A stretch of 44,039 bases of DNA from a phage: NCBI GenBank assembly GCA_030821775.1, contig GCA_030821775.1_4700.1. The stretch is one strand, 5' to 3'. Of the stretch, positions 2,255-36,300 are shown piece after piece. The notes beneath the pieces were generated by a model. The model was not told the origin of the DNA. It saw only the letters and a program-made list of their open reading frames with translations, and searched no databases. How positions within the stretch are numbered: position 1 is the stretch's first letter; the number at the start of each line of letters is the position of its first letter. Made by a program: the position numbers and the translations under genes.

Positions 2255-3804
2255 TAGCCCTCCTGTAATCCTTGTTGAATGACATTAGGTACAGCCTTAG
2301 CCACACCTTCGTTAAGCATAGCCGCCTGCTGGTCCTCCATCGCCTGCTCAGCTTCCTTGCGTAGCTGCTCCTCAGTCTTGAGGAATGGGAGTTCTGCGGA
2401 AATCTGACCGCGTACCCAGTCCATATAGTCAGGCCAACTTATAGCTCTCTGTGCAGATTCAGGCCATGTCTGAGGCAGTGACATGTACTGTGCAAAGGTA
2501 GCCAGCTTGTCTAACTCAGCCATGCGGCCTAGCGCCTCAATACCTGTCACAATCACAGGGTCTACCAGTTCGTTAGTGAAAGAATCACCAGTCTCCAGCA
2601 AGCCCCACATTGCGATAGGTGTCTGCATGGTTACAGCGAATAGGGAGTACACGCCACCCATGTTCTGCTCAATCTCCAGCGCATCACGCTGAATCTCAAC
2701 GGCGGTCACACGTTCTGCATCACGACGAGTTAATGCTTCCATCATGAACACAGTACCAACGCGGCGAGTGTATACCTCAAGCACAGCACTGATTGGTGTC
2801 AGGTCTGCATACTTCCCAAGCTGTACGATGTGGATATCCTCCTCTACACCAGTGATAACCTCACCAGTGCCTGAGTTAACAAAGTGGTCAACATCTGTCT
2901 GAGCGCCGGGACGAATAAGGTACTTGATGTCAGCCATAAGTGCAGCGCCACGCGCCACAGCTTCTGACAGGAACTGGATAACGAACAGGTCGCCAGAGTA
3001 ATCCTCGGCAAGTGGACGGCCCCAATCTTCACCGTAAGAGCGCTTCCATGTCAGTGGAATGAAGGGTAGTTTCTCCTTCTTGATGCGATTCTCTTCTCCT
3101 ACAGGGATATCGTCAGCAGATTGCTTGATCTCCCAGAACCCATCGCCTTTGTACTTAGCGTGAGTGTACAGCTTAACGTTGTCCTCACCTTTGCACTTCT
3201 TGCCTTTCATCGCAACTTCTATAGCCATGCGTGTTGCATGGTCGAAGGTCTTCAAGGCTTTCTCTTGCAGGAGAATAATGTCCAGCAAGTCACCGTTAGT
3301 GTCACGGTTAACGACATAGTGGTGCATCGGGACGGCGCTAATCGCACCTTCCTTCGGCTTGTAAAGCAGGCAGCTACCAGCAACGATAAGGTGCTTAAAT
3401 GCCTCAACGATTGCCGGACGGAACTGGCGCTGCTCCAGTGATTTCATAGCATTAGTTTCAACGCGAGCAAAGATAGTAGCTAGCTGAGTCTTCTTCATAC
3501 CTCGCTTGGCAAGGATTTGTTCACCATTAACCGTAAGGTCTACACGGAAGAAGGAACGTTGTGCAGGGAACAACACCTGCGCCAGCTTGTTGGCTAAGTG
3601 ATTAGTCGCTTGAGCGCCTACACCTTGCCAGCCATTCTGTGAAGTGTTGTTGTCACCTGTATCGTTCATCAGGTATGGAAGTGTCAACTTAGCGTAGTGT
3701 TTAGCCCTGTCAAGGAATGGACTACGCTTAGTAGAAAACTTCTCCCACAGCTTAGGAATCTTCGAACGCTTGCCACCATACGACATGTTGGTGTCATTGC
3801 GCAT
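2254..3804 (-). CDS. Portal (head-tail connector) protein
   Basis: 516-aa ORF with AGGAG SD, immediately upstream of scaffold and capsid; size and synteny match T7 gp8. Confidence 0.8.
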   Translation of the reverse strand: MRNDTNMSYGGKRSKIPKLWEKFSTKRSPFLDRAKHYAKLTLPYLMNDTGDNNTSQNGWQGVGAQATNHLANKLAQVLFPAQRSFFRVDLTVNGEQILAKRGMKKTQLATIFARVETNAMKSLEQRQFRPAIVEAFKHLIVAGSCLLYKPKEGAISAVPMHHYVVNRDTNGDLLDIILLQEKALKTFDHATRMAIEVAMKGKKCKGEDNVKLYTHAKYKGDGFWEIKQSADDIPVGEENRIKKEKLPFIPLTWKRSYGEDWGRPLAEDYSGDLFVIQFLSEAVARGAALMADIKYLIRPGAQTDVDHFVNSGTGEVITGVEEDIHIVQLGKYADLTPISAVLEVYTRRVGTVFMMEALTRRDAERVTAVEIQRDALEIEQNMGGVYSLFAVTMQTPIAMWGLLETGDSFTNELVDPVIVTGIEALGRMAELDKLATFAQYMSLPQTWPESAQRAISWPDYMDWVRGQISAELPFLKTEEQLRKEAEQAMEDQQAAMLNEGVAKAVPNVIQQGLQEG

Positions 3805-5243: not shown

Positions 5244-6162
5244 GTCTTAGTTCTGAAACTTTAGGAAGGCGAAGAACCCCTTTACTAGACTCTTGTAATG
5301 CCTTAACAGCAAAGATTCTACCAATGACATTCATCTCACCACCATTTTTAATATCATGATACATCTGTGCTGCATCCTCATGGGACCATCCACGCCCCAG
5401 CATGGCCTTAACAGACTTACCACCTTTCCATTTAAAGATTAAATTAGCTACCTTACCTTTATACTTACCCTTTCCTTCCTCCCACCCAATGCAGGTGAGG
5501 TCGTAAGATACCATACGCACGATCTTCGTTTGACGATAGCCCTTGTGCCCACTTTCATACTCCACATCAAGTTTGAATACAGCACCCTCTCGGCCTGCAT
5601 CTATTTGCTCTTGAGCAAACGCTTCAACTTCTCGCTCATTATGGCAAGGGGTAATAGGAAGGATAGCGTTGTACCCGCTAAGATGAGAGCCGATGCGACG
5701 ATGTAAAGCATCGTAACGTTTGAGATAAGAAACATCAGTGAATCCATCATGGAATGCCTTAATGGTTAGCATATCGAAGAAGTCGATATACAGGTTGTCT
5801 TTAATCTGCTGGCCTATGAAATCAAGTGGCTCGGTGCGGTTAGGGTTCACAACCCCAGAGATTGCCTCAAGGTAGATATCAACGGCCATAGACTGAAGCT
5901 CACCAAGATAAACGCCAACCGGAAAGGTAGCAAAGGTTTGTTCGAGGCCTTCAGTGTTTGCCAGTTTCTTACCAGTGCGACCAAAAATGCCAACGACACC
6001 ATCAGCGCGAACAACAACAGCAGAAAAGATACCATCTCGTTTCACCTGTGCATAACATGGAAAAGTAAGTTTCTTCTCAGGTACTTCACCGCGATGCTTC
6101 ACCAGCATGAATGGGTGGTTGCGGTGATCTTCGGGAAGGCCTAGGAATTGGAAGATGTTCAT
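5215..6162 (-). CDS. ATP-dependent DNA ligase
   Basis: 315-aa ORF with the nucleotidyltransferase KxDG motif (VKRDG) and strong SD GAAGGAGG. Confidence 0.8.
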   Translation of the reverse strand: MNIFQFLGLPEDHRNHPFMLVKHRGEVPEKKLTFPCYAQVKRDGIFSAVVVRADGVVGIFGRTGKKLANTEGLEQTFATFPVGVYLGELQSMAVDIYLEAISGVVNPNRTEPLDFIGQQIKDNLYIDFFDMLTIKAFHDGFTDVSYLKRYDALHRRIGSHLSGYNAILPITPCHNEREVEAFAQEQIDAGREGAVFKLDVEYESGHKGYRQTKIVRMVSYDLTCIGWEEGKGKYKGKVANLIFKWKGGKSVKAMLGRGWSHEDAAQMYHDIKNGGEMNVIGRIFAVKALQESSKGVLRLPKVSELRHDKEVPDVY

Positions 6163-6350
6163 TTCACCTCCTTCATCACACCTTTGACTATTGCCTCTTT
6201 AAAGTGCGCTAAGTTAGAACCATAGGCACTTAAATACCACGTTGCACCTCCATCGTTAGAGGTCAATACAAAACCGCGAGGACTTACTTTATATAAGTTA
6301 CCGAAGTACCCTCTATACAGTTTACCTTCCATATCAAATATCCTCATCAA
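6159..6350 (-). CDS. Hypothetical protein
   Basis: 63-aa ORF whose end is translationally coupled to the ligase start. Confidence 0.35.
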   Translation of the reverse strand: MMRIFDMEGKLYRGYFGNLYKVSPRGFVLTSNDGGATWYLSAYGSNLAHFKEAIVKGVMKEVK

Positions 6351-6804
6351 TACATTCGTGACGATGCTTCTGGAATAACTCTTTGTAGTAGTCTGCTTTC
6401 TTCAGATCTTCTTCAGTGTTGAATTTCTTACCTGCACGCAGACGATACTTCAAAGCGTTACCCATGCAATACCCAGCGAATTGCTTCTCTGTCATGCTAC
6501 GGGCAATGATAGTGATTGCTTCTACACCTTCGAAGAACTCGTAGTGTTTAGGCTTAGTAACCATATTGTTGTCCAACATGTTGGACTCTTCACCTTGCAA
6601 TGGGTTAACAACTTTGAAATAAGGTGCATACCATTCTCGTTTCTCAACACCATCTAACATGATAGAGTTATAATTAAGTTCCGCATGAGTCACTTTGAAC
6701 ACTCCATCTGGTTTCTTGTTTAAACTTGCACAAAGGCTATTCCAGTTGGCGTCTCGGTAAGCTGCACGGCGTACTACGTATTCTCCAATATTGATCTTTG
6801 ACAT
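6334..6804 (-). CDS. Conserved phage hypothetical protein
   Basis: Track ORF 6334..6819; the start is more likely the ATG at 6804, which has a GGAGG SD. No recognisable catalytic motif. Confidence 0.5.
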   Translation of the reverse strand: MSKINIGEYVVRRAAYRDANWNSLCASLNKKPDGVFKVTHAELNYNSIMLDGVEKREWYAPYFKVVNPLQGEESNMLDNNMVTKPKHYEFFEGVEAITIIARSMTEKQFAGYCMGNALKYRLRAGKKFNTEEDLKKADYYKELFQKHRHECIDEDI

Positions 6805-6859
6805 AATTAAATCCTCCATTCACTATACAATCAAGGCAAGCTAATACCTGCCCTTTGTT

Positions 6860-6877
6860 CTATAGTGTCACCTAAAT
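6860..6877 (-). promoter_or_regulatory. SP6-type phage promoter
   Basis: Plus CTATAGTGTCACCTAAAT is an exact reverse complement of the SP6 consensus core; overlaps the stop codon of the phosphoesterase gene. Confidence 0.8.
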
Positions 6878-7882
6878 CTTGCCAATCCAGCGACCTTCAC
6901 TGTTTGTCTGCATCGGGATGATCTGCGGTACACCATCGATGATTACCAGACAACCCAGCGCTGGCTTGTACTTAGATTCCCGACCATAGGAGAATGCACG
7001 TGAGCCTTCGTCAATCAGGCAGCCACCTTGCGCAGCCCAGTATTGCTCGTGGCTGTTACTGGCATACTCGATAGACATCTTGCCATGCAAGTGACCACAC
7101 ACAAGATTCATACGCTCGTGTGCTGCATCGGTCAGAACTGCACCTGCTGGCTGGTGTTTGAATGCAACCTGCTCGCCGTTCGGCAGTTCCAGAATATGCG
7201 TGTGTTGCCACTCCCAACGCTCTCCTCCTCCCTGCGGGAAGAATACCTCACGGTATGTACGCAGGTACTGTACAGGGATGCCATGAGAGTGTGCCTTGCG
7301 GAAGTGCATAGAGCCGTGGTTAGAGTGACACAGGCGCATCACAGGGAACATACGGTGTAGCTTCTCCATGAAGACACGAGCCTTCTCAAGTTCCATGCCA
7401 GCAGAGTCAAGGTTGGGATCTGAATCGTGGAATGACATAGCATGTTTGTCTGCTTCATCACCAAGGTGGACAACTGTGTCCGGCTTGAACCGTGCAGCTA
7501 CAGCAGCCAAGAACTCCAGAGTATCTTGATGCTCATAAGGTGCGTGAGTATCTGGGATCACCAGAATGCTTCGATGAGGCGAGTCAGGCAGAGGTTTAAC
7601 AGCCAGATCTTCATAGCGATCAGGGTTGCGCAGCTTGCGTTGCTCCTTAATACGTTTGTTCTCTGGAAGAAGGGATTGGTAGTTGTCGCCATTCTTCTTC
7701 TTGGTCTTGAATTGACCATGCCAGTATCGAGCGAGTTGGCGAGTGATCTTCTTACCAACCGGATGCGCAGACAGGATGTGCGCCATTTCATTGTAGTTAA
7801 CATTACCTTTCTCGTCGGTAGCTTGCTCGATTGCGTCAAGCACCTCGGAGTCTTTAAACAGGCTACGAAGTTTAGCCACCAT
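6872..7882 (-). CDS. Calcineurin-like metallophosphoesterase
   Basis: 336-aa ORF with metallophosphoesterase signature blocks (VIPDTHAPY, HLGDEAD, GHLHG) and an AAGGAGG SD. Confidence 0.7.
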   Translation of the reverse strand: MVAKLRSLFKDSEVLDAIEQATDEKGNVNYNEMAHILSAHPVGKKITRQLARYWHGQFKTKKKNGDNYQSLLPENKRIKEQRKLRNPDRYEDLAVKPLPDSPHRSILVIPDTHAPYEHQDTLEFLAAVAARFKPDTVVHLGDEADKHAMSFHDSDPNLDSAGMELEKARVFMEKLHRMFPVMRLCHSNHGSMHFRKAHSHGIPVQYLRTYREVFFPQGGGERWEWQHTHILELPNGEQVAFKHQPAGAVLTDAAHERMNLVCGHLHGKMSIEYASNSHEQYWAAQGGCLIDEGSRAFSYGRESKYKPALGCLVIIDGVPQIIPMQTNSEGRWIGKI

Positions 7883-8285
7883 TTGCCTCCTTCTTCTTAC
7901 GTGAGTATGCTAAGCGAGCCTTGCGGTTGCGAGCCTCGCGCTTCTCTGCCTCAGTCTGGTGCTTGTGATACAGCCTGTCAGTCTGAGGTTTCTGGTGTAA
8001 CTTCCAGTAGTTCAGAAGATTCTCAAGCCATTTGATTTGGTAATACTTGCTGTTACCAGCCTTACCATAGCCAGAGATAATACCCTTAATCTTGCCCTCT
8101 GCACCATTGCATCCTCGGCATACCACAGCACGGCAGAAGCCTGTGTCATGGTCATGGTCGAGTACACGGTTTATGGCAGTGACAGCTTTAAGACTGCCAC
8201 CACACAAAGGGCATTTGTAACCTTGTACCTCCATTAGCTCCTGCTTGTATGCAGAAACCTCTGAGGCTTTCAGCTTGATTGCCAT
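7872..8285 (-). CDS. Endonuclease VII-like Holliday junction resolvase
   Basis: 137-aa ORF with an N-terminal CPLCGG zinc motif, DHDHD and CRGCN, the arrangement characteristic of T4 endonuclease VII-family resolvases. Confidence 0.65.
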   Translation of the reverse strand: MAIKLKASEVSAYKQELMEVQGYKCPLCGGSLKAVTAINRVLDHDHDTGFCRAVVCRGCNGAEGKIKGIISGYGKAGNSKYYQIKWLENLLNYWKLHQKPQTDRLYHKHQTEAEKREARNRKARLAYSRKKKEANGG

Positions 8286-24601: not shown

Positions 24602-26314
24602 CTACTTTGCAACCCAACCTTGAGCAGATGTACCAGATTCTTTAATGTACAATGTACTACCACCAGACCCATTAATACCAGTTGCCAAAGAACCGACAGG
24701 TGCACCTACACCTAAAGTTGTAGGATTGCCATTTAGTCCATAAACAATCACCGTACTAGAACCGACTCCTTGGTTATTCTGAGGTGCTTGCGTACCATAG
24801 CAATCATTGCCAATTAGTTTAATATTGGAGCAAGAAGAAGTAACACAAATACCAAGGCTTGGCTTGTTAGGGCTTTCTCCATCTACTCCAATATTACCTT
24901 CTACTAGGATGTTGTTAGCTCCTGTGTCTATACTAATGAAGTGTCTACCTGCTTCAGCGGTAGATACTTCCTTCATATTATTAGCTTTAATCACTAGACC
25001 GCTAGCCTTGCAGTTTACATGAATACCATATTGCCCTAATTTAGAGAAGATATTACGACTAAGTATACCTTCTCCTGATAAACCAGTACCAATGAATGTA
25101 GTAGCATCAGACTCACCTAACCAAATCCCACTACCTCTTCCGTTTTCCCAAGTATTACCTTCGATGTGGTATTTTGTCCCAAAGCGTAAACCGATTAACC
25201 CTAAGCCACCAGAGCCTGTATTACCTTTTACAATTAAATTCTTACACCACCTTGCATCTACACCATAGGATACATCCCCTGTGAGGATCATAGTATTATT
25301 AGAAATTTCAATATGGTCATGCCAAATGTCACTAATATCGGTAAAAGGCCAAGATGGTGCATCAATTAGCACTGGTGCTCTTACGCCATCAAAAGTACAA
25401 CCTACAACACTACCTTGTCGAGTCCCTTGCGGTTTAGTTTGAGAGGAGACAGGTGTAACATGAACGCCTCTTGCATTAGAGTTTCTAAAGGTGCAACCAC
25501 GTACTGTCCAGTTTTTCCAGTTAAATACACGTACACCTGCAAAGAGAGCACCATCTGTAGTGCAATTCAAGATACGGATATTGTTGCCCTGTACACCATA
25601 AGCTGAGGCGTGATTTCCGATTAGTGCACCATAACCTCCAAACCCGGATTCTGGGTTTGGACCAGCATAGCAATTCTCCACCAGCATACCACTAGACTGC
25701 ACATAGTGACCAACTGTAATAAGTCCTGGGTCTAACTGTATAGCCTCTGAGAAGCTACGACTGCCTGTATTCTTAAACCCTAGGAATTTACAATCACGAA
25801 TAACTACGTTGTTCCAATCTGCTAAATCTATGGCGTGGTAGTCCACTACATTGTTAACTGTTATGCCTTCAAACTTCAAATCATTATTACTAGTAGATGC
25901 AAATACTACAAAAGGTGTATCCCCTTTAGTGTGACCATTGCCTTCATAGACACCTCCACTGACTGTTACATTACTAGCTTGCCTTTGTGATAATCTGAAT
26001 AGCGTATCTCCTGTTTCGTAGTCACGTACAAATGTTACACCTTTAGCAACCTTGAAGTGTGTATTAGCAAATATCTCAACAGTACCACTGAGTTTATATT
26101 CGCCAGCTTTAGTGACTGATACAGTACCACCGCCTAGCAATCTGACCGCATTGAATGCAGCTTGAAGGGCTTGCCTGTTGTCATTAGAAGAGGGATTAAC
26201 TCCAAAATCCGCAACATCTATTGTATCCGATAGTTTATCAGATAGCAGGCGCTCAATAGTACCTGTTAGTTTACTCTTGTACTTCACCAAGTAAGCACTT
26301 AATCTTTGAAGCAT
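24602..26314 (-). CDS. Tailspike 2: beta-helix polysaccharide depolymerase
   Basis: 570-aa ORF with AAGGAGG SD; N-terminal pectate-lyase-3-like motif (DVADFGVNP...), many Gly/Asn-rich repeat turns typical of right-handed parallel beta-helix tailspikes; terminal position as in SP6/K1-5. Confidence 0.7.
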   Translation of the reverse strand: MLQRLSAYLVKYKSKLTGTIERLLSDKLSDTIDVADFGVNPSSNDNRQALQAAFNAVRLLGGGTVSVTKAGEYKLSGTVEIFANTHFKVAKGVTFVRDYETGDTLFRLSQRQASNVTVSGGVYEGNGHTKGDTPFVVFASTSNNDLKFEGITVNNVVDYHAIDLADWNNVVIRDCKFLGFKNTGSRSFSEAIQLDPGLITVGHYVQSSGMLVENCYAGPNPESGFGGYGALIGNHASAYGVQGNNIRILNCTTDGALFAGVRVFNWKNWTVRGCTFRNSNARGVHVTPVSSQTKPQGTRQGSVVGCTFDGVRAPVLIDAPSWPFTDISDIWHDHIEISNNTMILTGDVSYGVDARWCKNLIVKGNTGSGGLGLIGLRFGTKYHIEGNTWENGRGSGIWLGESDATTFIGTGLSGEGILSRNIFSKLGQYGIHVNCKASGLVIKANNMKEVSTAEAGRHFISIDTGANNILVEGNIGVDGESPNKPSLGICVTSSCSNIKLIGNDCYGTQAPQNNQGVGSSTVIVYGLNGNPTTLGVGAPVGSLATGINGSGGSTLYIKESGTSAQGWVAK

Positions 26315-26399: not shown

Positions 26400-28298
26400 T
26401 TACTTAGGCAGGGAAGCTAGTGCTTCCTGCATACGCTTAATAGTCCGCCGCATCAACGCAGCCTCTAATATCAGTACTTCCTCGTAACGAATACCGTAGC
26501 GGGAACCTGCTGGTGTAATCAGTTTACGAGAGCCATTGGCATCTTCCTCGTATACATCATCCCAACTGTCGAAGCACAAGAAGCCATAGCGATGTGCATC
26601 TATACCGTGACGTTCGAAAGCCTCCTTAGCTCGCTGAGCGATGATGCCAAAGTGCCATCTAGCTGAGTCTACACCCTTCTCCTCAATTCGGTCCAAGTAC
26701 TGAAACTGCACAAAGTCAACTTCAGACCAAGCATCCAGTAAAGCATCTGAGATAATAAGAGGCTCTGTTTTATCCCTAGCATCTGAGACAACAGTGAATG
26801 CTGATTGAGTAAAACCGCCAGACCACACTCGATCGGCGGAACCTAATGCGTATGTACCAGTACTATTTGGGGTCATTGCATTAGCACCTAACTGCAAATA
26901 GCCTTCTCTACTGGTAGAAAGACGCACGTTACCGTTGGTGAGGGACACTGTCCGATAAGTACCATCAGAAGTAAATAGGCGAACTTGAGAAGAAGTACCC
27001 CCACCTACAGCTAATGACACAGCACCGTCCCCAAGCATTCTGTACTTATCAGCAGAAGTAAGAGCGCCAGAAGGGGGTGACATGGACTTAATCCGCCATT
27101 CGAACCTACCTGACATACTACCTATGTACTGCCCTAAGGCAGGTGCGTGCACTACGTTACTATTATTAGTGCCGTCAATAGTAGCTGCACCGGCAATAGT
27201 ACTAGCAGAACTGAGAAGGTCGTTTCTCCTGCCAGGGTGCTTTACCTCTACGAAGTTACGTGTAGAGCCGGATTCGAAAGTAATAACACCTGTAGCACTG
27301 TAGCTAGGAAATACAGACGCATAGTTGTTATTAGCTGTACCTATAAAGCGTGCAATTGTAGCAGTCTGCTTTTGTCCTAAAGAGTTAGTACCATCACATC
27401 CTGACATAAGCACATTATTTATGACGTTATCAGAACCCTCTACTGTAACACCATGAGCCTGCCCAGCATCAGAAGTTGAGTAATCTACGAGCACGTCTGA
27501 GATTAAGTTCGTACTTCCTTTGCCTGCAACAACCGCTGCATACTTAGGGTTATTAGCCATCACCCCCTTGATAAGGTTATTAGAAGGAGCTATTGGCCCT
27601 TCAGTGCCGTTGTAAGTTACATGCTGACAATCTGTCCCTATAACATTACTGACTATGTTGTAACTGGCTTTACCTTTCAACTCTACTGCTCCGAACTGAG
27701 GGTAGTTCTTAGCAATGACGTTATCTATGAGGGAGTTAACTGAGGAATCAGCAAGTACGCATCCGGCTGCCTTATTAGTAGCATAGCCGGAATAGCTACC
27801 TCGAATGCCTTTAATCATAAGTCCATCCGGTGGCGCACCATTAGGGTATGCGATTAAACTGAAACCAATACCTTTAACGTCTGAGAAGTTAACGTCACTT
27901 ACAGTAACATCACTTCCACCAGCAAGGGATACCTGCTGTCCCTGAGTTGTATCAGTCGCCTTATTACTTTCTACCGTAATATTACTTAAGCGACCTGCAC
28001 GTAGATTGTTAAATACTAGGTAGTTACCTGTACTTGAACGGTGACTTAGCACGCCACTACCCCTGCCGTCTAAGTTACAGTAATTACTATTAATACCAGA
28101 GCTAGAGAATACACCATCTGAGACTGTGACAGCTTTCTGAGAGTTTAATGAAGCAGCTATAACCTCCGTATCATCAGTAGTGGCGTCACCTGCAGCACCA
28201 AACGGCTTTGATGTTAAAACTCTCGCATCAAGGTACTCATACAAAGATTGTCCTTTATGCAAGATTCCTTCAGTATTAGGTTTGGTTAATTTAGCCAT
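26400..28298 (-). CDS. Tailspike 1: depolymerase with C-terminal intramolecular chaperone domain
   Basis: Track ORF 26400..28358 begins at TTG; the ATG at 28298 (MAKLTKP...) has an AGGAGA SD. N-terminal FGAAGDATTDDT motif, beta-helix repeats, and a C-terminal ~128-aa domain (SDARDK...GIIAQRAKEAF...) resembling the self-cleaving chaperone (peptidase S74) of endosialidase and K5 lyase tailspikes. Confidence 0.75.
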   Translation of the reverse strand: MAKLTKPNTEGILHKGQSLYEYLDARVLTSKPFGAAGDATTDDTEVIAASLNSQKAVTVSDGVFSSSGINSNYCNLDGRGSGVLSHRSSTGNYLVFNNLRAGRLSNITVESNKATDTTQGQQVSLAGGSDVTVSDVNFSDVKGIGFSLIAYPNGAPPDGLMIKGIRGSYSGYATNKAAGCVLADSSVNSLIDNVIAKNYPQFGAVELKGKASYNIVSNVIGTDCQHVTYNGTEGPIAPSNNLIKGVMANNPKYAAVVAGKGSTNLISDVLVDYSTSDAGQAHGVTVEGSDNVINNVLMSGCDGTNSLGQKQTATIARFIGTANNNYASVFPSYSATGVITFESGSTRNFVEVKHPGRRNDLLSSASTIAGAATIDGTNNSNVVHAPALGQYIGSMSGRFEWRIKSMSPPSGALTSADKYRMLGDGAVSLAVGGGTSSQVRLFTSDGTYRTVSLTNGNVRLSTSREGYLQLGANAMTPNSTGTYALGSADRVWSGGFTQSAFTVVSDARDKTEPLIISDALLDAWSEVDFVQFQYLDRIEEKGVDSARWHFGIIAQRAKEAFERHGIDAHRYGFLCFDSWDDVYEEDANGSRKLITPAGSRYGIRYEEVLILEAALMRRTIKRMQEALASLPK

Positions 28299-28382
28299 GC
28301 TATCTCCTATTACTTCCCAACCCTCCCCATGAAGATTGGCTAGTAATAGGCCGCTCAAAAGAACGGCACTATCTTATCTCTT

Positions 28383-28968: not shown

Positions 28969-29313
28969 TTACCACCTCGCTTTGTTAGAGCGCACATCGA
29001 TGTGTGTGAAGTTCGGGTAAGCACCAATGCCGTACTTGTCTGGGTACTTGTTGCATAGGTACTCTAGCACCTTGGTAGGTGATACACCTTTCACATTAAT
29101 GTCAGCAGCAATGCCAAGCAGATGCTTGGAGTCACGAGCGCCACCAACATTTGAGTTGTGTTTAGCACAGCGATGACCAGAGGTGATAACTACAGGCGCA
29201 TCAAAATGCTCACGCACATCTGTGACTACCTGTAATAACTCAGCATCAACAGTGGATGTACCGCACCCACAACGGCAAGCAAATTCTTTACGCTTGAAGT
29301 ATTTGTTAAGCAT
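28969..29313 (-). CDS. Endolysin, peptidase M15-type (L-alanyl-D-glutamate peptidase-like)
   Basis: Track ORF to 29367 starts at TTG; the ATG at 29313 has a GAGGG SD. Zn-binding pattern SGHRCAKHN...D...H typical of M15 endolysins; no signal peptide. Confidence 0.65.
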   Translation of the reverse strand: MLNKYFKRKEFACRCGCGTSTVDAELLQVVTDVREHFDAPVVITSGHRCAKHNSNVGGARDSKHLLGIAADINVKGVSPTKVLEYLCNKYPDKYGIGAYPNFTHIDVRSNKARW

Positions 29314-29315
29314 TA

Positions 29316-29600
29316 TTAGCCCTCTGCTGGAGTGACAGGTGACTCCACCATAGTAGTTGCATACCAAGGGTCAGTTGGTTCACTACCATGTGCAATAGCG
29401 ATGTACAAGGTGTTTGCTTTCTCTACAGCAACCATGGCACCTTTCTGCTTACCAGATAGGTGTTTAATGTTGATAGGATGATTTTTCTTCTGAAGGTCTT
29501 CTTCAGCAACAACAGGCATGGGGATTGCCGTTGCAATAGTTTGTACTGCCTTTACTCGAAAAGCCTGACCAGTAACAGAACCTGTACCATATGTAGCCAT
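29316..29600 (-). CDS. Small protein, paralog B of a tandem pair
   Basis: 94-aa ORF with GGAGG SD; shares the block SGKQKGAMV...IAIA with the adjacent ORF 29616..29891. Confidence 0.55.
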   Translation of the reverse strand: MATYGTGSVTGQAFRVKAVQTIATAIPMPVVAEEDLQKKNHPINIKHLSGKQKGAMVAVEKANTLYIAIAHGSEPTDPWYATTMVESPVTPAEG

Positions 29601-29615
29601 GTAATCCTCCTCTTC

Positions 29616-29891
29616 TTAAGCTAGGGTAATAGAAGTGCCCGCTGTAACGGACAGCCAATTAGAATCTTCTTTGCCATCAACTGCAATAGCAATACTTAAT
29701 ACACCAGATGAGTCAAGACACACCATAGCTCCTTTCTGTTTGCCTGATTTGGTGGCATCATTAATAACATTGCTTTTCTTACTAGCTTCCTCTTTTGAGA
29801 TTACCGGAAGCATTAGTGCTTCACTTACAGGTTGTAACTGCTTACGACCAGACTTACCTGTAATGGGTTTACTACTATAACTATCAGCCAT
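29616..29891 (-). CDS. Small protein, paralog A of a tandem pair
   Basis: Track ORF 29616..29951 trimmed to the ATG at 29891 (AGGAGAG SD), giving 91 aa MADSYSS...; homologous to the adjacent 94-aa ORF. Confidence 0.55.
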   Translation of the reverse strand: MADSYSSKPITGKSGRKQLQPVSEALMLPVISKEEASKKSNVINDATKSGKQKGAMVCLDSSGVLSIAIAVDGKEDSNWLSVTAGTSITLA

Positions 29892-30031
29892 TATCTCTCC
29901 TATTATGTAAATATAGTAAGGAATGAAGGAATAGGGTGTACAGGAGTACACCCATACTAAGGCATACCTAGATATAACCTAGGTTAACCTATATTATCCT
30001 TGTTATTTCTCTTATTCTCTGTGCCCTCCTC

Positions 30032-30049
30032 CTATAGTGTCCCCTAATT
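30032..30049 (-). promoter_or_regulatory. SP6-type phage promoter (variant) at the 3' end of the large terminase gene
   Basis: Plus CTATAGTGTCCCCTAATT overlapping the terminase stop codon. Confidence 0.6.
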
Positions 30050-31946
30050 ACCAAGTCCTTGATATTCTTGAAGAAAGAGTATTTCGAGACTTGACCTGCA
30101 TCGTGGGTGCATTTCCGTAGACACGGCGCTGCATTGCCACTGACGTATTCACCTGTTTTCGATAACCGTGGTCTTGTCCTGTGAAGAACTCACGGCGACG
30201 GCGAGGGTCATGCATCATCTCAAGATAATCGCGCATCTCCTGCGCTCTGAGGCGATTTATCCGGTTAACCTCGTCATAGTCTATCTGAGAAGTTAATTGC
30301 CGTATAGCGCCGTACAGTGCGTCTAAGCGGTCATCATGTCGCAGGCACCCTTTCTCCAGAGTGATGTTCGAGATTTGAGCAAACAGGCTGTAGCTCATCC
30401 GAACCTCCAGAGGGTAGTGCTGGATGCTGTCAATGTCCTGCTTGATCATCTCAGCGTTGAAGATGATGCGGTGCGCGGAGAACAGCGGTTCAAGCGTCTC
30501 GATGATACGAACCTCTTTCTGACCGTGTGCGTAGTCTTCTTTCAACTCGGCAGGCCACTCACGTTCGAAGTATGGCTTAATTACCGCCTCAAACGCACCG
30601 TGACCGAAGTTCTTCTCTATGAAGACCTCTTTTACCCCTGCGGCCTTAGCCTCGCGCACAATGCGACTGAGCGCGTTCTCGGAGTATCCGCCAGGCACAC
30701 CGAAGCATTTATAGACGTAGATGAACGTCCCCAACAGGAATACGATAGCCACGCCAGTTTCGTCGCCGTTCTTACCGCCACCAGCGGGGTCAATGTACAT
30801 GACGCGGCGCTGGATTGGTCGCCACTCATACGGGCGTGCAACCGGACGGTACAGGTAGTCTGTAGGCTTGTTACCGAAGCGCGGAGCGTCACCAATCAAG
30901 TTGAGAGTGTCGTTGCTCCAAGTCGGCATCTCTGGGACAACATCTGTACCAAAGCTCATGCAGATAAGCTGGTTCAGGCGCAGGGGGTAACGGTCTGCGT
31001 CCATCAGGCGCGTGTTCAGCATGAACTGTAGCTGGAACTTAGCAGTACCTTGTGAGATTTCCTTCTCAATCAGCTTCTCGTCATCGTACATTTCAGGGCA
31101 AGTTGGAGCGCCCTGAGTCCCGTCGATGCCATAACCTGAGCGCAGTGACGGGTCTTCCATCATATCTTGGCGAATCATCGGTGCGAGGAAGTCGCCGTAG
31201 CAAGCCTCCTGCTCTAACGTTGGATACCGTCCGGGCCAGATTCGAATCTGATAGCCACGCGCTGGTAAGTTGTTGTAGATGGAGTTCACGCTCTGAGGCG
31301 TACCAAGGTAGATGATGTCACCGAACTGGTTGATTGATTCAAACTCTTTGGTCAGGTCTTCCAGCAAGGCACGGCCTGCTGCGGTACGGCTGTTCTGCAA
31401 CGATTCAACGTCATCAGCCAAGATGATGTCTGCACGAGCACCCTGCATACCCGCCTCGATAGAGTAGCAGGCCACGGACGGAGACTTGTCACTACCACGT
31501 AATGTGTAGTGAATCTCAAAGCCTTTGATTGAAGCCTTGTCACCTGCGTAGATGTCAGGCAACATGAACTCCAAGAAGTCCAGACCACGGAAGATTTTGA
31601 TAACCCAGCCTGCGATTTCCTCTGCACGCTTGGCTGTCTGCGACACAATCATGATACGCTTGTGTGGTTCATGGATGATACGAAATACAGAGTAGATTGC
31701 AGCGATTGTGGTCTTAGCCTGTCCACGCTGTGCCTCTACCATTCGATATTTGTTCCCACTGAATAGGAACTTTAAGATATCCGCTTGTACCCGATTCAAA
31801 TCAGGGTTGCCAGTGATTAATGTATTGATTACAACCTGAGCGAATGACAGAAGTCCCTGCACGGTATACGGGAATGTTTGTTGTAACTCGTGCAGCAACT
31901 CCCAACGGGCAAGGGCTTCTGCCTGAGATTCCCTTGCTTTTGCCAT
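30048..31946 (-). CDS. Terminase large subunit
   Basis: 632-aa ORF with AAGGAGG SD; start overlaps the small-subunit stop (TAATG); ATPase and nuclease-sized domains; position as T7 gp19. Confidence 0.85.
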   Translation of the reverse strand: MAKARESQAEALARWELLHELQQTFPYTVQGLLSFAQVVINTLITGNPDLNRVQADILKFLFSGNKYRMVEAQRGQAKTTIAAIYSVFRIIHEPHKRIMIVSQTAKRAEEIAGWVIKIFRGLDFLEFMLPDIYAGDKASIKGFEIHYTLRGSDKSPSVACYSIEAGMQGARADIILADDVESLQNSRTAAGRALLEDLTKEFESINQFGDIIYLGTPQSVNSIYNNLPARGYQIRIWPGRYPTLEQEACYGDFLAPMIRQDMMEDPSLRSGYGIDGTQGAPTCPEMYDDEKLIEKEISQGTAKFQLQFMLNTRLMDADRYPLRLNQLICMSFGTDVVPEMPTWSNDTLNLIGDAPRFGNKPTDYLYRPVARPYEWRPIQRRVMYIDPAGGGKNGDETGVAIVFLLGTFIYVYKCFGVPGGYSENALSRIVREAKAAGVKEVFIEKNFGHGAFEAVIKPYFEREWPAELKEDYAHGQKEVRIIETLEPLFSAHRIIFNAEMIKQDIDSIQHYPLEVRMSYSLFAQISNITLEKGCLRHDDRLDALYGAIRQLTSQIDYDEVNRINRLRAQEMRDYLEMMHDPRRRREFFTGQDHGYRKQVNTSVAMQRRVYGNAPTMQVKSRNTLSSRISRTW

Positions 31947-32433: not shown

Positions 32434-33393
32434 TTATACCAGTTGAAGTTTAAACATGACAGTACATTCAGGTAACGGCTCATTGAATGTCACAGTAGAA
32501 CCATGAATCTCATACGCAGAGTCAGGCTGATACAGCCCATCAAGGTAAACATCAATGCGCTTGAATGCCGTAACAACATCAATTGACTGTGTACCTTCTC
32601 TGACCTGCTGGTGCATCAAGGTTGTATCACCAGCCGTAGGTGGAGTGAGGCGACTACCGATGAGTACATACAACTCATCTCCTGCTTGCAGAGGTTCTGA
32701 CAAGGAGATAACACCATGCCCAACGGATACAGCGCCAGCCAACTCGTGCTGAAAGACACCGTTGATGAAGACCATTGCATCTTTGAACTCATATGGAGGT
32801 TGGATGATTTGCTCTCCACCAGAGGCGACCATGTACCAAGGGACAGTTCGATGTGACACACCGGAGATCATGCCCTTCTTAAGACCTGCAATCTCTAGGT
32901 CTTGTGCCTTATTCCAATCTGTATGCTTTTTGTCTACAGAATCAAGCTGGCCTTTGTTCACAGCATCGGTTTCATTGATGCCAGCACCAAGGTTAGTGAT
33001 GCGATTCCCACCCATGTTAAGGTGGCTCTTTATGAAGTAACCATCTGGCAAGAAGCCATCAAGCAGTTCCTGAATAATCTCAAGTTGTTGTATGAAGTTG
33101 TTGTTCAAAGACTTCATATCCAGAACAACGTTACGGTCGAAGACAGCATACGGGTTGTCCTTCTCAACAATCCTGCGAATACGCATCTTACGACCACTTG
33201 CTGGGGCTACGTTAAAGGTAATCTGGTTGGTGCCAGACAACACCCAACCAGTTGCTTCAACCCAATCACTTCCATCCAACCACTCTACGTGAATGTCGGA
33301 AGCACGGATATAACCTTTATCATAGCCAGCGAAGCGGAAAGAGAACGTAGTCGTGCTACCATCACCAGTCACTTCGGTATAGGTATAACTCAT
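32434..33393 (-). CDS. Tail fiber / tailspike adaptor protein (T7 gp17 N-terminal domain-like)
   Basis: ~319-aa ORF; ATG at 33393 overlaps the upstream stop (ATGA); N-terminus resembles the tail-attachment domain of T7-like tail fibers; too short to carry its own receptor-binding domain. Confidence 0.7.
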   Translation of the reverse strand: MSYTYTEVTGDGSTTTFSFRFAGYDKGYIRASDIHVEWLDGSDWVEATGWVLSGTNQITFNVAPASGRKMRIRRIVEKDNPYAVFDRNVVLDMKSLNNNFIQQLEIIQELLDGFLPDGYFIKSHLNMGGNRITNLGAGINETDAVNKGQLDSVDKKHTDWNKAQDLEIAGLKKGMISGVSHRTVPWYMVASGGEQIIQPPYEFKDAMVFINGVFQHELAGAVSVGHGVISLSEPLQAGDELYVLIGSRLTPPTAGDTTLMHQQVREGTQSIDVVTAFKRIDVYLDGLYQPDSAYEIHGSTVTFNEPLPECTVMFKLQLV

Positions 33394-36300
33394 CAATCCT
33401 CCAATAGATCAACACTGGCTTTGGTCATCTGACCAATACCAATTGTGTTTGCCAGCGGAACCAGACGGCGCACCTTGTCTACCAGTTGGCGTGTAGATAC
33501 GTCATCGTCACCGTTAGCATACTTAACCAATGCCTTGGAAAAGTCCACGGCATCACCAATAACACCAGCGCCTGCTACGAGTTCACCAAAGCCTTGTTGC
33601 TGGAAGCCCATACGTCCCGGTGCTTGCATTAGCGCATCCGGCATTAAACCGAACGTAGCCAAGGTATCACCAGCTAGGCCGAAACCTGCAACTTGTGGTA
33701 GCTTGTTGAACACACCCATAGCAATATTGTTGGTGTCAAACTTCTCTTTCAGGAACTTGTCACGGTCCTCTCGACCAATCGCCTGCATCTGCATCTGTGT
33801 TGCATAGGAAGCGTAGCCAAGCAGCGAAGACCAAGCAAGGATTTGTGCCGCTTGAATCTTGTCACCACGTAAGTCATGAATGAGTTGCTTCTCGATAGAG
33901 ACAATGGAGAATGATTTGAACTGAGTAAGTGCTTTGCCCCACCATTTGTTCATCCAGATACCTTCGTCACCAATGAAGTTACGCTGGATTAACCTACCAG
34001 ACATACGGCGTACTGCGATGCCTACGGTTTCCCGAAGGTCTGGTTCCATCACATCGAAGTTCATCATACGAACCTTCTCGCCATTATATTCAGCATAAGC
34101 TGGGTTTTCGTCGAAGTGGCGCTGTAGGCGCTTCATGGTTGCTTCATTCAGGCCAATCTCATCCAAGTCAGCCTGCGGCAACTTACGTCCACCAGACAGG
34201 TGTTCTTTAAGACGCTTGTTGATTGAACGTGCCACAATCTTCTCGGAACCACCCTGAATTGCCTTGAAGCCAGATAGCCAAGTGTTCACGCGACTACCCA
34301 TCGCAAGCCCGTTGTCTACGATTTGTGACAGCTTATTGAGGTTGTCAGCAGTCTCACCGAACTCGTCATGGCGTGTGTTCCAACCTGTCAGCCAGTTGTC
34401 TTCGCCAATGTATCCTACTAACTCCTCCATCTCACGCAGTTCTGGCTCAAGCAGTTCGCCTTGTGCTGTACCTCCTTTACGACCAGCGCGTGACCTGAGG
34501 AACTTAGTGGCAGGGACAGACTTCAGCACCGTACCTACACCCATCTTGGTTATGGCTCGTGCAAGCTCTGGGATCTGAGCAAAGCCCATCTGTCCAAGCC
34601 GCAAGAGGCCAGTCACCTCACGGAGTCGGCGTGTGCCTCTGACAATGCCAGCGTTAGGGTCTGCGTCAATAGTGTTCCCGTACATTAGGCGAACAGAATC
34701 ACGTAGCATATCTGCCTCTGCACGTAGCTGTTTGATAGCCTTGGCATCTGAGCCAGCCATGTTGCGCCCAGCGCGTTCTGCTGCGTCGATTGCGTTGAAC
34801 ACGGACTGACGGGTAGGGAAGCCCATAGCCGCCAGTGCAGCGCCCCCTGCGGCCTCTTTGCCGTAGTTCTCAACCAGTGTCGCCACGTTGGTGTTCAGCA
34901 AGTCCTGTACTTTCATACCGCCGTACTCTGCCTGCGTATTGATGCCCATGCTGGCTTTAGCACGGTTCGATACAGACTCAGCCATCTCTGCCAACTCCGT
35001 ACCTTCAATAAAGTTGTCAATGATGGAGTCAGGGACACCAGCGGATTTCAGGTCAGCAATGAGTTGCGCCTGCTGCTGCTGTGAGATAACGCGGTCGAAG
35101 GCTACACGGCTAGACAAGGTAGAGTCGGAGGCACGGATATACTGGACTTTAGCGAGTGCATCTGCTGACTTCTTACCTAGCTTGTACTTGCCTGTCTGAT
35201 AACCTTTGGACAGCAAAGCAATCACTGCCTCGCTTGAGCCAAGACGGTTAACAGCCTCGGTGATTTTGATGCCGTCGTAGATAACTGGCATGTAGTCACG
35301 AGCCGACTGCACGTTCTCGAAGCCTGCTTCACCAGCCTGCTTGCGTATCTCAAGTGCTTTCTTCAACTTGTCAGCCATACCCTCGGCAGCCAACTTAACA
35401 CCCTTGGGAGTATCTTCTGGAATACCTTTGACAATTGCTGTGTAGACTTGGTTGTTGAAGTCACGAGTTACGGCAGGGTTAAGGTAATCAATGGCCCGTA
35501 AGTTATTGTCCTTGAGGAACTGAGAGAAGCCATCGTTGTAGCGGTTACGATCTGCTGTACGAATCAGGTTGTTATACACATCAGACAAGATTGAAGCTGT
35601 CTTCCCTTGATACGCACCACCTTGTGCATTCTCAAGCAGGCGTAAGCCAAGACCACGGAACACAGGGTTCTTCGAGTTAAGAATAACGGAAGACACAGAA
35701 CCAAGCCCAAAGGTAGATACAGGCTTAACGTCAGACTGATATGCCTCACGAGCCAAGTCATCCATCAGGTCTTCCATCTTATCAGAGAGGTAGAATTGCT
35801 CACCTTGAATCTCTGAGCCTTTAACACGGGCTGCTGACAGGGAATCATCAGGCGCTGCCTTGGCTTCCACCTCTGCCTGTGCAGCCTCGTCAAACTTCTG
35901 AGTCGGCGTCTTCTTAGCAGCCTGCTCTGCCTTGATAGCAGCAACTGCCTCCTTCACTGCACTGTGCATATCAACCTTACGTGACGGCACTTCCAGTCCA
36001 AGCTCTTTGATTTGCTGCTCACGCGTTAGGCTTGAGAATCTCTTAAGCTCTGCCTTGGCTGCTGGTACGTTCTCTACAGCTCTCAGCTTAGCCTGTAGTT
36101 CTTCCAAGCGACGAGTGGCATCAGCGATTGGCGCATCGAAACGACGAGCCAGTGCCTGCAATTCAACCTTAGTGTCTAATGCCTCTACCTTGTTACGCGC
36201 TGCACCTTTCTTGGCTGCATGTTCTGCCCGTGCTGCTGTACGAGTTTCCTGTAATGCAGCCAGTTCACTCTCGGCTTGTCTAATGTCAGCCTTGAGTCTT

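Follow-up and report, generated by a model that had tools for sequence, protein, structure and literature searches.

Two small paralogous proteins encoded after the terminase of SP6-like podophages as candidate subunits of a trimer-forming virion-surface module

SP6-, K1-5- and K1E-type phages are used heavily in phage therapy and in research on capsule depolymerases. A conserved pair of small proteins encoded in these phages has nevertheless passed twenty years with either no function or a false enzymatic label, which raises the question of what the two proteins are and what they may do. We addressed this question in a 44,039-nucleotide stretch of phage DNA (the window, by which we mean the whole stretch that was analysed). 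The window is an SP6-like podophage genome (Molineuxvirinae), probably complete and from a lytic phage, with its genes on the minus strand, and the DNA around the pair is 92.7% identical to Salmonella phage UAB_Phi78 and approximately 78% identical to coliphage K1-5. The reading that we favour, and to which we give about an even chance, is that the two proteins are the bare subunits of a module that forms trimers at the virion surface, probably on the capsid.

Table 1. Positions of the gene pair and of neighbouring features in the window.
Feature	Position	Strand	Details
T7 tail-fibre N-terminal domain (PF03906)	32434-33396		found in the adaptor encoded here
Large terminase (TerL)	30048-31946	(-)	upstream of the pair
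SP6-type RNA polymerase promoter core (predicted)	30030..30044	(-)	GGGGACACTATAGGA; pattern search; directly after the terminase stop
Perfect palindrome	29981-29990		AGGTTAACCT; in the gap between terminase and gene 1
G+C-rich hairpin	29934..29953	(-)	GGGTGTAC-TCCT-GTACACCC; terminator-like match in the ~140-nt leader between promoter and gene 1
Gene 1 Shine-Dalgarno sequence	29895..29901	(-)	AGGAGAG, read from the sequence (AGGAG core 29897-29901)
Gene 1	29616..29891	(-)	ATG 29891, TAA 29618-29616; 91 aa, 9.4 kDa, pI 8.8
Gene 2 Shine-Dalgarno sequence	29606..29612	(-)	GAGGAGG, read from the sequence
Gene 2	29316..29600	(-)	ATG 29600, stop 29318-29316; 94 aa, 10.0 kDa, pI 6.8
M15_3 peptidase endolysin	28969-29313	(-)	Pfam E 2e-33; 2-nt gap after gene 2
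Tailspike gene	26400-28358	(-)	after the lysis genes
Tailspike gene	24602-26314	(-)	after the lysis genes

An earlier note on this DNA had described the two reading frames as homologous, with common SGKQKGAMV and IAIA blocks, each preceded by a strong Shine-Dalgarno sequence of its own, and had placed them between the large terminase and the endolysin behind their own promoter. This description holds in all of these respects (Table 1). Pairwise BLASTP aligns the two products with 30/81 identities (37%) and 63% positives (E 7e-18), and both blocks occur in both proteins. For gene 1 we adopted the ATG at 29891 rather than the GTG at 29951, an alternative start given in the ORF listing, because the orthologues are 91-92 aa long and the AGGAG core lies just ahead of that ATG. 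Each product consists of one family domain without a C-terminal extension and carries N44, SGKQKGA and W79 (gene 2 numbering). A search of the 44-kb window with the family HMM found no third copy, the next best hit having an E-value of 0.24. By Kyte-Doolittle hydropathy (19-residue windows) the maximum means are 1.52 and 1.12, with GRAVY values of about -0.15; neither protein shows a transmembrane segment, a signal peptide or a signal-anchor, and no lipobox containing Cys is visible. Judged by their sequences, both are soluble proteins of 9-10 kDa. The gene 2 protein has an exact match on record as 'TPA: hypothetical protein [Escherichia coli]' (P0001).

The SP6-type promoter pattern has 12 minus-strand matches in the window, compared with approximately one match expected by chance on both strands, and the site ahead of the pair is also present in UAB_Phi78, K1-5, CrRp3 and SP6. 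This predicted promoter drives both gene 1 and gene 2. The hairpin in the leader is identical in four relatives, and its Kp7 version is kept by means of three compensatory pair changes. Its possible roles are those of a terminator or of an element for RNA processing or stabilisation; a search of the leader against Rfam gave no match, and a terminator is annotated at the leader position in some related records. The region 29892-30047 as a whole (~155 nt) is conserved at least as much as the coding sequence among UAB_Phi78, K1-5 and CrRp3.

The earlier note could match the pair to no known T7 or SP6 function. The pair does have counterparts in SP6 and its relatives, themselves without assigned function: gene 1 is orthologous to K1-5/K1E gp41, SP6 gp42 and Kp7 gp45, and gene 2 to K1-5/K1E gp42, SP6 gp43 and Kp7 gp46, while the UAB_Phi78 counterparts are gp51 and gp52. 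The K1-5/K1E, SP6 and Kp7 orthologues share with the pair the gene order after TerL and before the endolysin, the length (88-99 aa) and the invariant residues; identity is 85-89% to UAB_Phi78, 75-80% to K1-5 and 41-52% to SP6 and Kp7. Both genes match PHROG 2725 (E 2e-34 for gene 1 and 1e-42 for gene 2) as well as a family HMM built from 93 sequences (E 3e-28 and 2e-33). On this sequence evidence the pair belongs unambiguously to the K1-5 gp41/gp42 family, which is itself uncharacterised.

The earlier note would have counted poor conservation among relatives, combined with undetectable expression, against its reading; we found the genes to be conserved. Using tblastn, the gene 2 protein matched 200 genomes among 50,697 phage records, from phages of Escherichia, Klebsiella, Salmonella, Proteus, Vibrio, Pseudomonas, Erwinia, Pectobacterium, Ralstonia and other hosts. 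A profile built from the pair and a few relatives retrieved 273 proteins at E<=1e-3 from 1.84 billion cluster representatives. The taxonomically classified records that we examined all belong to the Autographiviridae (Molineuxvirinae or Colwellvirinae). The dN/dS values relative to orthologues are 0.22-0.65, which indicates purifying selection on both genes, though not a very strict one. The two genes are ordinary conserved members of their phage group.

It is apparent that the locus is mosaic. The window TerL is 94% identical to that of SP6 and 79% to that of K1-5, whereas genes 1 and 2 are 41% and 52% identical to their SP6 counterparts but 75% and 80% identical to those of K1-5. In UAB_Phi78 a K1E-like block takes in a neighbouring lysis-region ORF too, and the capsid and tailspike are SP6-like. 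Taken together, this indicates that the cassette moves independently of both the capsid and the tail genes. The conserved promoter and leader are a plausible recombination junction at this locus.

The family domain, which is confined to phages, is approximately 85 aa long, with an invariant N, an invariant S and K in SGKQxGA and an invariant W, and with a near-invariant G, A and C-terminal P. We determined the domain layout of 148 of the 150 best-scoring representatives (of the 273) with the family HMM. One domain alone was found in 89 of them, and a single N-terminal domain followed by a C-terminal extension of more than 40 aa in 13. Exactly three tandem domains per chain were present in 38 (three of these with a further extension of ~130 aa), two detected domains with a domain-sized remainder in 6, and two domains in 2; none of the 148 chains had more than three. 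The three-domain fusions, about a quarter of the scanned best representatives, are continuous ORFs. Wherever they have genomic context they lie directly after TerL on autographivirus-like contigs, several other triple-bearing contigs being too short.

In the genomes a recurrent order is observed, in which the bare set leads and a long member often comes after it. The bare set is a single gene in Vibrio phage AS51, where no long member follows, in Era103, where it is followed by gp48 (232 aa), and in the Pseudomonas phage uligo, where it is followed by gp43 (580 aa). The window, UAB_Phi78 and K1-5 have two bare genes only; Kp7 and CrRp3, in contrast, have two bare genes and a third copy with a C-terminal module, namely gp47 with an Ig-like domain in Kp7 and the 232-aa gp16 in CrRp3. 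SP6 differs again, its two bare genes being accompanied by gp44, a truncated third copy of 81 aa (E 3e-10). On metagenomic contigs the bare set is a fused triple, and the long member is either another triple or a long form with one domain. No gene separates TerL from the first family gene in the window or in the 11 other loci that have enough context (UAB_Phi78, K1-5, Kp7, SP6, CrRp3, Era103, AS51, uligo, Reminis and two metagenomic contigs). In JSF38 one gene intervenes between TerL and the family gene.

Several of these loci have features of their own. The AS51 member (NC_047737.1, 1989-2264 on the plus strand; 91 aa, HMM E 1e-24) lies between the terminase and a pectate-lyase-like tailspike and is unannotated in RefSeq. 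SP6 gp44 (2810-3055 in the SP6 record, L004) matches only the first two thirds of the domain and clusters with the N-terminal domain of CrRp3 gp16, and may be what is left of a long form. A 27-kb metagenomic contig (L018) encodes two fused triples after the terminase, at 5755-8170, with two small ORFs between them; the bare triple is 279 aa long and the other 389 aa, including a C-terminal extension of 127 aa.

The modules that could be identified at the C-termini of the long members are of two kinds. Kp7 gp47 and the family member P0187 end in an Ig domain (Pfam Ig_3), and that of gp47 matches the decoration proteins 8zvi (E 6e-17) and 5lxk (E 3e-16), the latter of which we take to be the C-terminal domain of T5 pb10. 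P0171 and P0246 (Ralstonia phage Reminis) carry the Sf6-type tail-needle knob PF16532 (E 2e-30 and 5e-43). This type of knob is a trimeric TNF-like domain. In uligo gp43 the family domain forms the N-terminus (hhalign probability 97%). The C-terminal modules of CrRp3 gp16, Era103 gp48, uligo gp43 and P0190 gave no match in Pfam or the PDB, and a second, word-indexed homologue search with the profile returned close relatives only, with nothing further on the long forms. Such a combination, in which the N-terminal domain is conserved and the exposed C-terminal modules can be swapped, is what marks a virion-surface anchor. The same logic, a small anchor bearing an exposed Ig-like domain, is seen in T5 pb10 and T4 Hoc and in Kp7 gp47.

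The only direct evidence of a virion role that we found comes from Klebsiella phage Kp7, of which gp45, gp46 and gp47 are all members of the family (HMM E 1e-19 to 1e-28). Its GenBank record names gp45 and gp46 'minor capsid protein' and gp47 'minor capsid protein with Ig-domain', and one sentence of the Kp7 preprint identifies gp45-47 in purified particles by mass spectrometry and asserts their location on the capsid. This preprint was the only source of virion proteomics for SP6-like phages that we found in the literature searched. Among released structures, PDB 7xyc is a cryo-EM structure of a Kp7 tail fibre, and the major capsid protein chain of the Kp7 capsid structure 7y3t is 100% identical to the Kp7 sequence. 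Sequence comparison with 7y3t matched the major capsid protein only and found none of the minor proteins, and no released PDB chain was found to match Kp7 gp32, gp45-47 or the family profile. In Vibrio phage Peru-2 (PX516383), a 473-aa GDSL esterase, P2_42, is abundant in purified virions and invisible in cryo-EM maps (PMC13320782). The minor capsid protein of that phage is an Ig-like pentamer whose fold differs from that of the family (PMC13320782).

The structure prediction and remote homology search that the earlier note had called for gave a small beta-rich core and the membership in PHROG 2725 described above, and no counterpart in the PDB. AlphaFold modelled the gene 2 protein, with an alignment of 93 sequences, at a pLDDT of 78. 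The confident core spans residues ~28-85 and contains a short strand, two short helices and three or four more strands, and the N-terminal arm scores 47-67. A natural fused triple of 268 residues (P0109) was modelled at a pLDDT of 90.7 and a pTM of 0.87, with its linker arms at 77-84. A pTM of 0.87 for a chain of three domains points to a fixed mutual arrangement, and hence to a compact pseudo-trimer whose arms become ordered on assembly, as read from the confidence scores alone. A Foldseek search of viral models returned mainly family members, together with a handful of larger proteins whose annotations are pectate lyase, SGNH esterase or tail fibre. One weak match was to a 473-aa viral protein (UPI001EAA2096); the family domain of uligo sits on a 580-aa protein labelled 'lipase'. 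No PDB entry was found to match the fold of the family domain, and no fold was found in common with the known decoration families (gpD, Soc, Dec, the Hoc/pb10 anchor and the beta-tulip). Sequence searches of Pfam, NCBIfam and the PDB with the pair, Kp7 gp46/gp47 and the 93-sequence profile yielded nothing informative on the family domain; the one part that matched was the Ig domain of gp47.

On the reading that we favour, the pair would be the bare members, without a display domain, of an accessory surface module of SP6-like podophages. In each protein an extended, basic arm at the N-terminus, marked by the conserved motif TG-x3-(R/K)-x-K, leads into a small beta-rich core, which comprises approximately 60 residues and is built around the invariant N, SGKQxGA and W. 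Both would be expressed late from their own phage promoter and would assemble in threes by way of the beta core and of exchanged basic arms, the arms becoming ordered on assembly. The likeliest forms in this phage would be a mixed trimer of gp41-like and gp42-like subunits (for example 2:1), or two homotrimers at different local three-fold sites. Such trimers would attach to the exterior of the particle, most probably to the capsid shell, and act as decoration or cement; in relatives, the family domain would serve as the docking foot for Ig-like, TNF-like knob and large enzyme-like C-terminal modules. We infer that the split proteins form trimers, that they attach to the capsid rather than to the tail, and that their role is stabilising or adhesive.

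The preference of fused chains for exactly three domains (38/148, with 6 more chains having two and a remainder, and none having more than three) suggests a trimeric unit. The position after TerL, the separate clades formed by the two copies, the small size and solubility of the proteins, the strong ribosome-binding sites and the dedicated promoter also support this reading. Against it, the presence of only two paralogues does not account for the stoichiometry of a trimer. There are also weak structural echoes of trimeric tailspike proteins and of a protein annotated as tail fibre, and the knob-bearing member of Reminis lies next to a probable fibre gene and not next to TerL. In addition, the mosaic locus shows the pair travelling with neither the capsid nor the tail genes, the fold is unlike that of any known decoration protein, and the family has no PDB chain.

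In function, the nearest analogues besides the anchor-plus-Ig decoration proteins are lambda gpD, phage L Dec and the phi29 head fibre gp8.5. These are trimers located on the capsid exterior at three-fold sites, and in Dec and gp8.5 a capsid-binding base carries a projecting trimeric part. The pair resembles these proteins in being small, late and non-essential-looking and, on the favoured reading, would likewise form trimers, and the knob-bearing members of the family resemble Dec and gp8.5. It differs from them in that no fold similarity to the family was detected and in that capsid binding is putative here. We also count the collagen XV/XVIII trimerisation domain among the closest known systems. 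To our knowledge, no other decoration family has paralogous subunits together with single-chain pseudo-trimers. A broader proposal, which we put forward tentatively and regard as somewhat unlikely, is that the family represents a previously undescribed fold that forms homo-, hetero- or single-chain pseudo-trimers and gives SP6-like and related podophages a general platform for docking on the capsid. Whether a phage has one, two or three paralogues, or three fused, would then reflect a tuning to the local three-fold sites of a T=7 shell, of which there are three classes, and the C-terminus would be the plug-in point for an Ig domain, a TNF-like knob or an esterase.

The family is worth testing, and easy to test, in view of its rule of three, its pseudo-trimers, its modular C-termini, the absence of any solved relative and the extent to which it is mis-annotated. 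Should the proteins prove to be surface trimers whose C-terminus is free, they would account for some of the particle's stability or adhesion, the annotation of well over a hundred genome records would be corrected, and a ready-made site for the display of peptides or domains would be at hand on therapeutic podophages. The split, paired and fused-triple versions would amount to a natural experiment in the interconversion of a hetero-oligomer and a pseudo-symmetric single chain.

We consider it fairly unlikely that the proteins are in the virion but on its tail or neck, as a trimeric docking foot for the tail adaptor or a collar, with the bare forms filling or organising sites and the long forms acting as accessory spikes. 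The long forms do resemble short trimeric spikes, such as the Sf6 tail-needle knob and the 580-aa 'lipase' of uligo, and the knob form of Reminis adjoins a 595-aa gene without a Pfam match, probably for a tail fibre or spike. The Foldseek matches to larger proteins with pectate lyase, SGNH esterase and tail fibre annotations point in the same direction, as does the released Kp7 capsid model, which lacks chains of this kind. However, the Kp7 depositors, who solved both the capsid and a tail fibre, call the proteins minor capsid proteins, and uligo has separate tail fibre genes. The pair also has no Pfam match to the T7 gp17 N-terminal domain (PF03906), which is carried by the window adaptor. 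When compared with the first 150 aa of both window tailspikes, the family profile obtained hhalign probabilities of 0.2% and 0.1%, and we rejected a relation to the tailspike N-termini at these values below 1%. One of these tailspikes has a C-terminal Peptidase_S74 intramolecular chaperone domain (E 3e-13), and the other a right-handed beta-helix (E 3.5e-11).

Still less probable, in our estimate, is that the pair encodes late non-structural proteins, such as assembly chaperones or factors that modulate lysis or the host envelope, and that these only co-purify with virions. Such a role would agree with the position between packaging and lysis genes, with the moderate dN/dS (0.22-0.65) and with the K1E-like block of the window/UAB_Phi78 lineage, which includes at least one lysis-region ORF while the capsid and tailspike are SP6-like. 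It is opposed by the detection of homologues in purified Kp7 virions, by Ig-like and knob fusions typical of exposed virion proteins, by the lack of a membrane segment, signal peptide or lipobox, and by a position after TerL that is kept despite quite different lysis cassettes in Era103 and uligo. Among the functions that the earlier note had listed, decoration or adaptor component is accordingly the best fit, given the Kp7 virions and the Ig and knob C-termini, whereas a lysis regulator is unlikely since there is no membrane segment. The probability left over by the favoured reading and these two alternatives belongs to readings that we have not thought of.

The earlier note had further taken the pair for a recent tandem duplication that is diverging adaptively in the lineage of the window. 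The genes are indeed adjacent, of like length and in possession of common sequence blocks, and a metagenomic hybrid joins the N-terminal half of copy 1 to the C-terminal half of copy 2. We nevertheless hold this account to be very improbable. In a neighbour-joining tree of the domain, gene 1 groups with K1-5 gp41, CrRp3 gp18, SP6 gp42 and Kp7 gp45, and gene 2 with K1-5 gp42, CrRp3 gp17, SP6 gp43 and Kp7 gp46. The copy-1 and copy-2 clades of orthologues thus both span SP6, K1-5, CrRp3 and Kp7, and on these grounds we rejected a recent origin. Identity between the paralogues is 37-39%, with synonymous sites saturated (pS 0.67), compared with 75-89% among orthologues inside the UAB_Phi78/K1-5 lineage, and selection on the genes is purifying. 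From the separate clades and the synonymous saturation, the duplication is ancient, and the distinct clades argue for two non-redundant subunits. The hybrid gene (P0107, 95 aa, on a contig of 1,963 bp) has its halves joined at the SGKQKGAMV block and has the look of an unequal recombination product in which the pair was reduced to one gene, which indicates that copies 1 and 2 are still able to recombine.

Finally, RefSeq labels PHROG 2725 'acetyl-CoA acetyltransferase', and this label, which is found on many phage records, is all that speaks for the pair being thiolases. Thiolases are proteins of approximately 390 aa with N- and C-terminal domains. We give this identity next to no probability and reject it as refuted for practical purposes, because the window proteins, at 91-94 aa, are about a quarter of that size, have no thiolase match in Pfam or NCBIfam at E<=1 and no PDB sequence match despite the many thiolase structures, and are predicted to fold as a small beta domain. 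The label stands, without supporting homology, on records of SP6, K1-5, UAB_Phi78, CrRp3 and Proteus, Klebsiella and Pseudomonas phages, and uligo gp43 is labelled 'lipase' yet has no Pfam match. In the 2016 annotation table of UAB_Phi78, the acetyl-CoA acetyltransferase is given as 'putative'.
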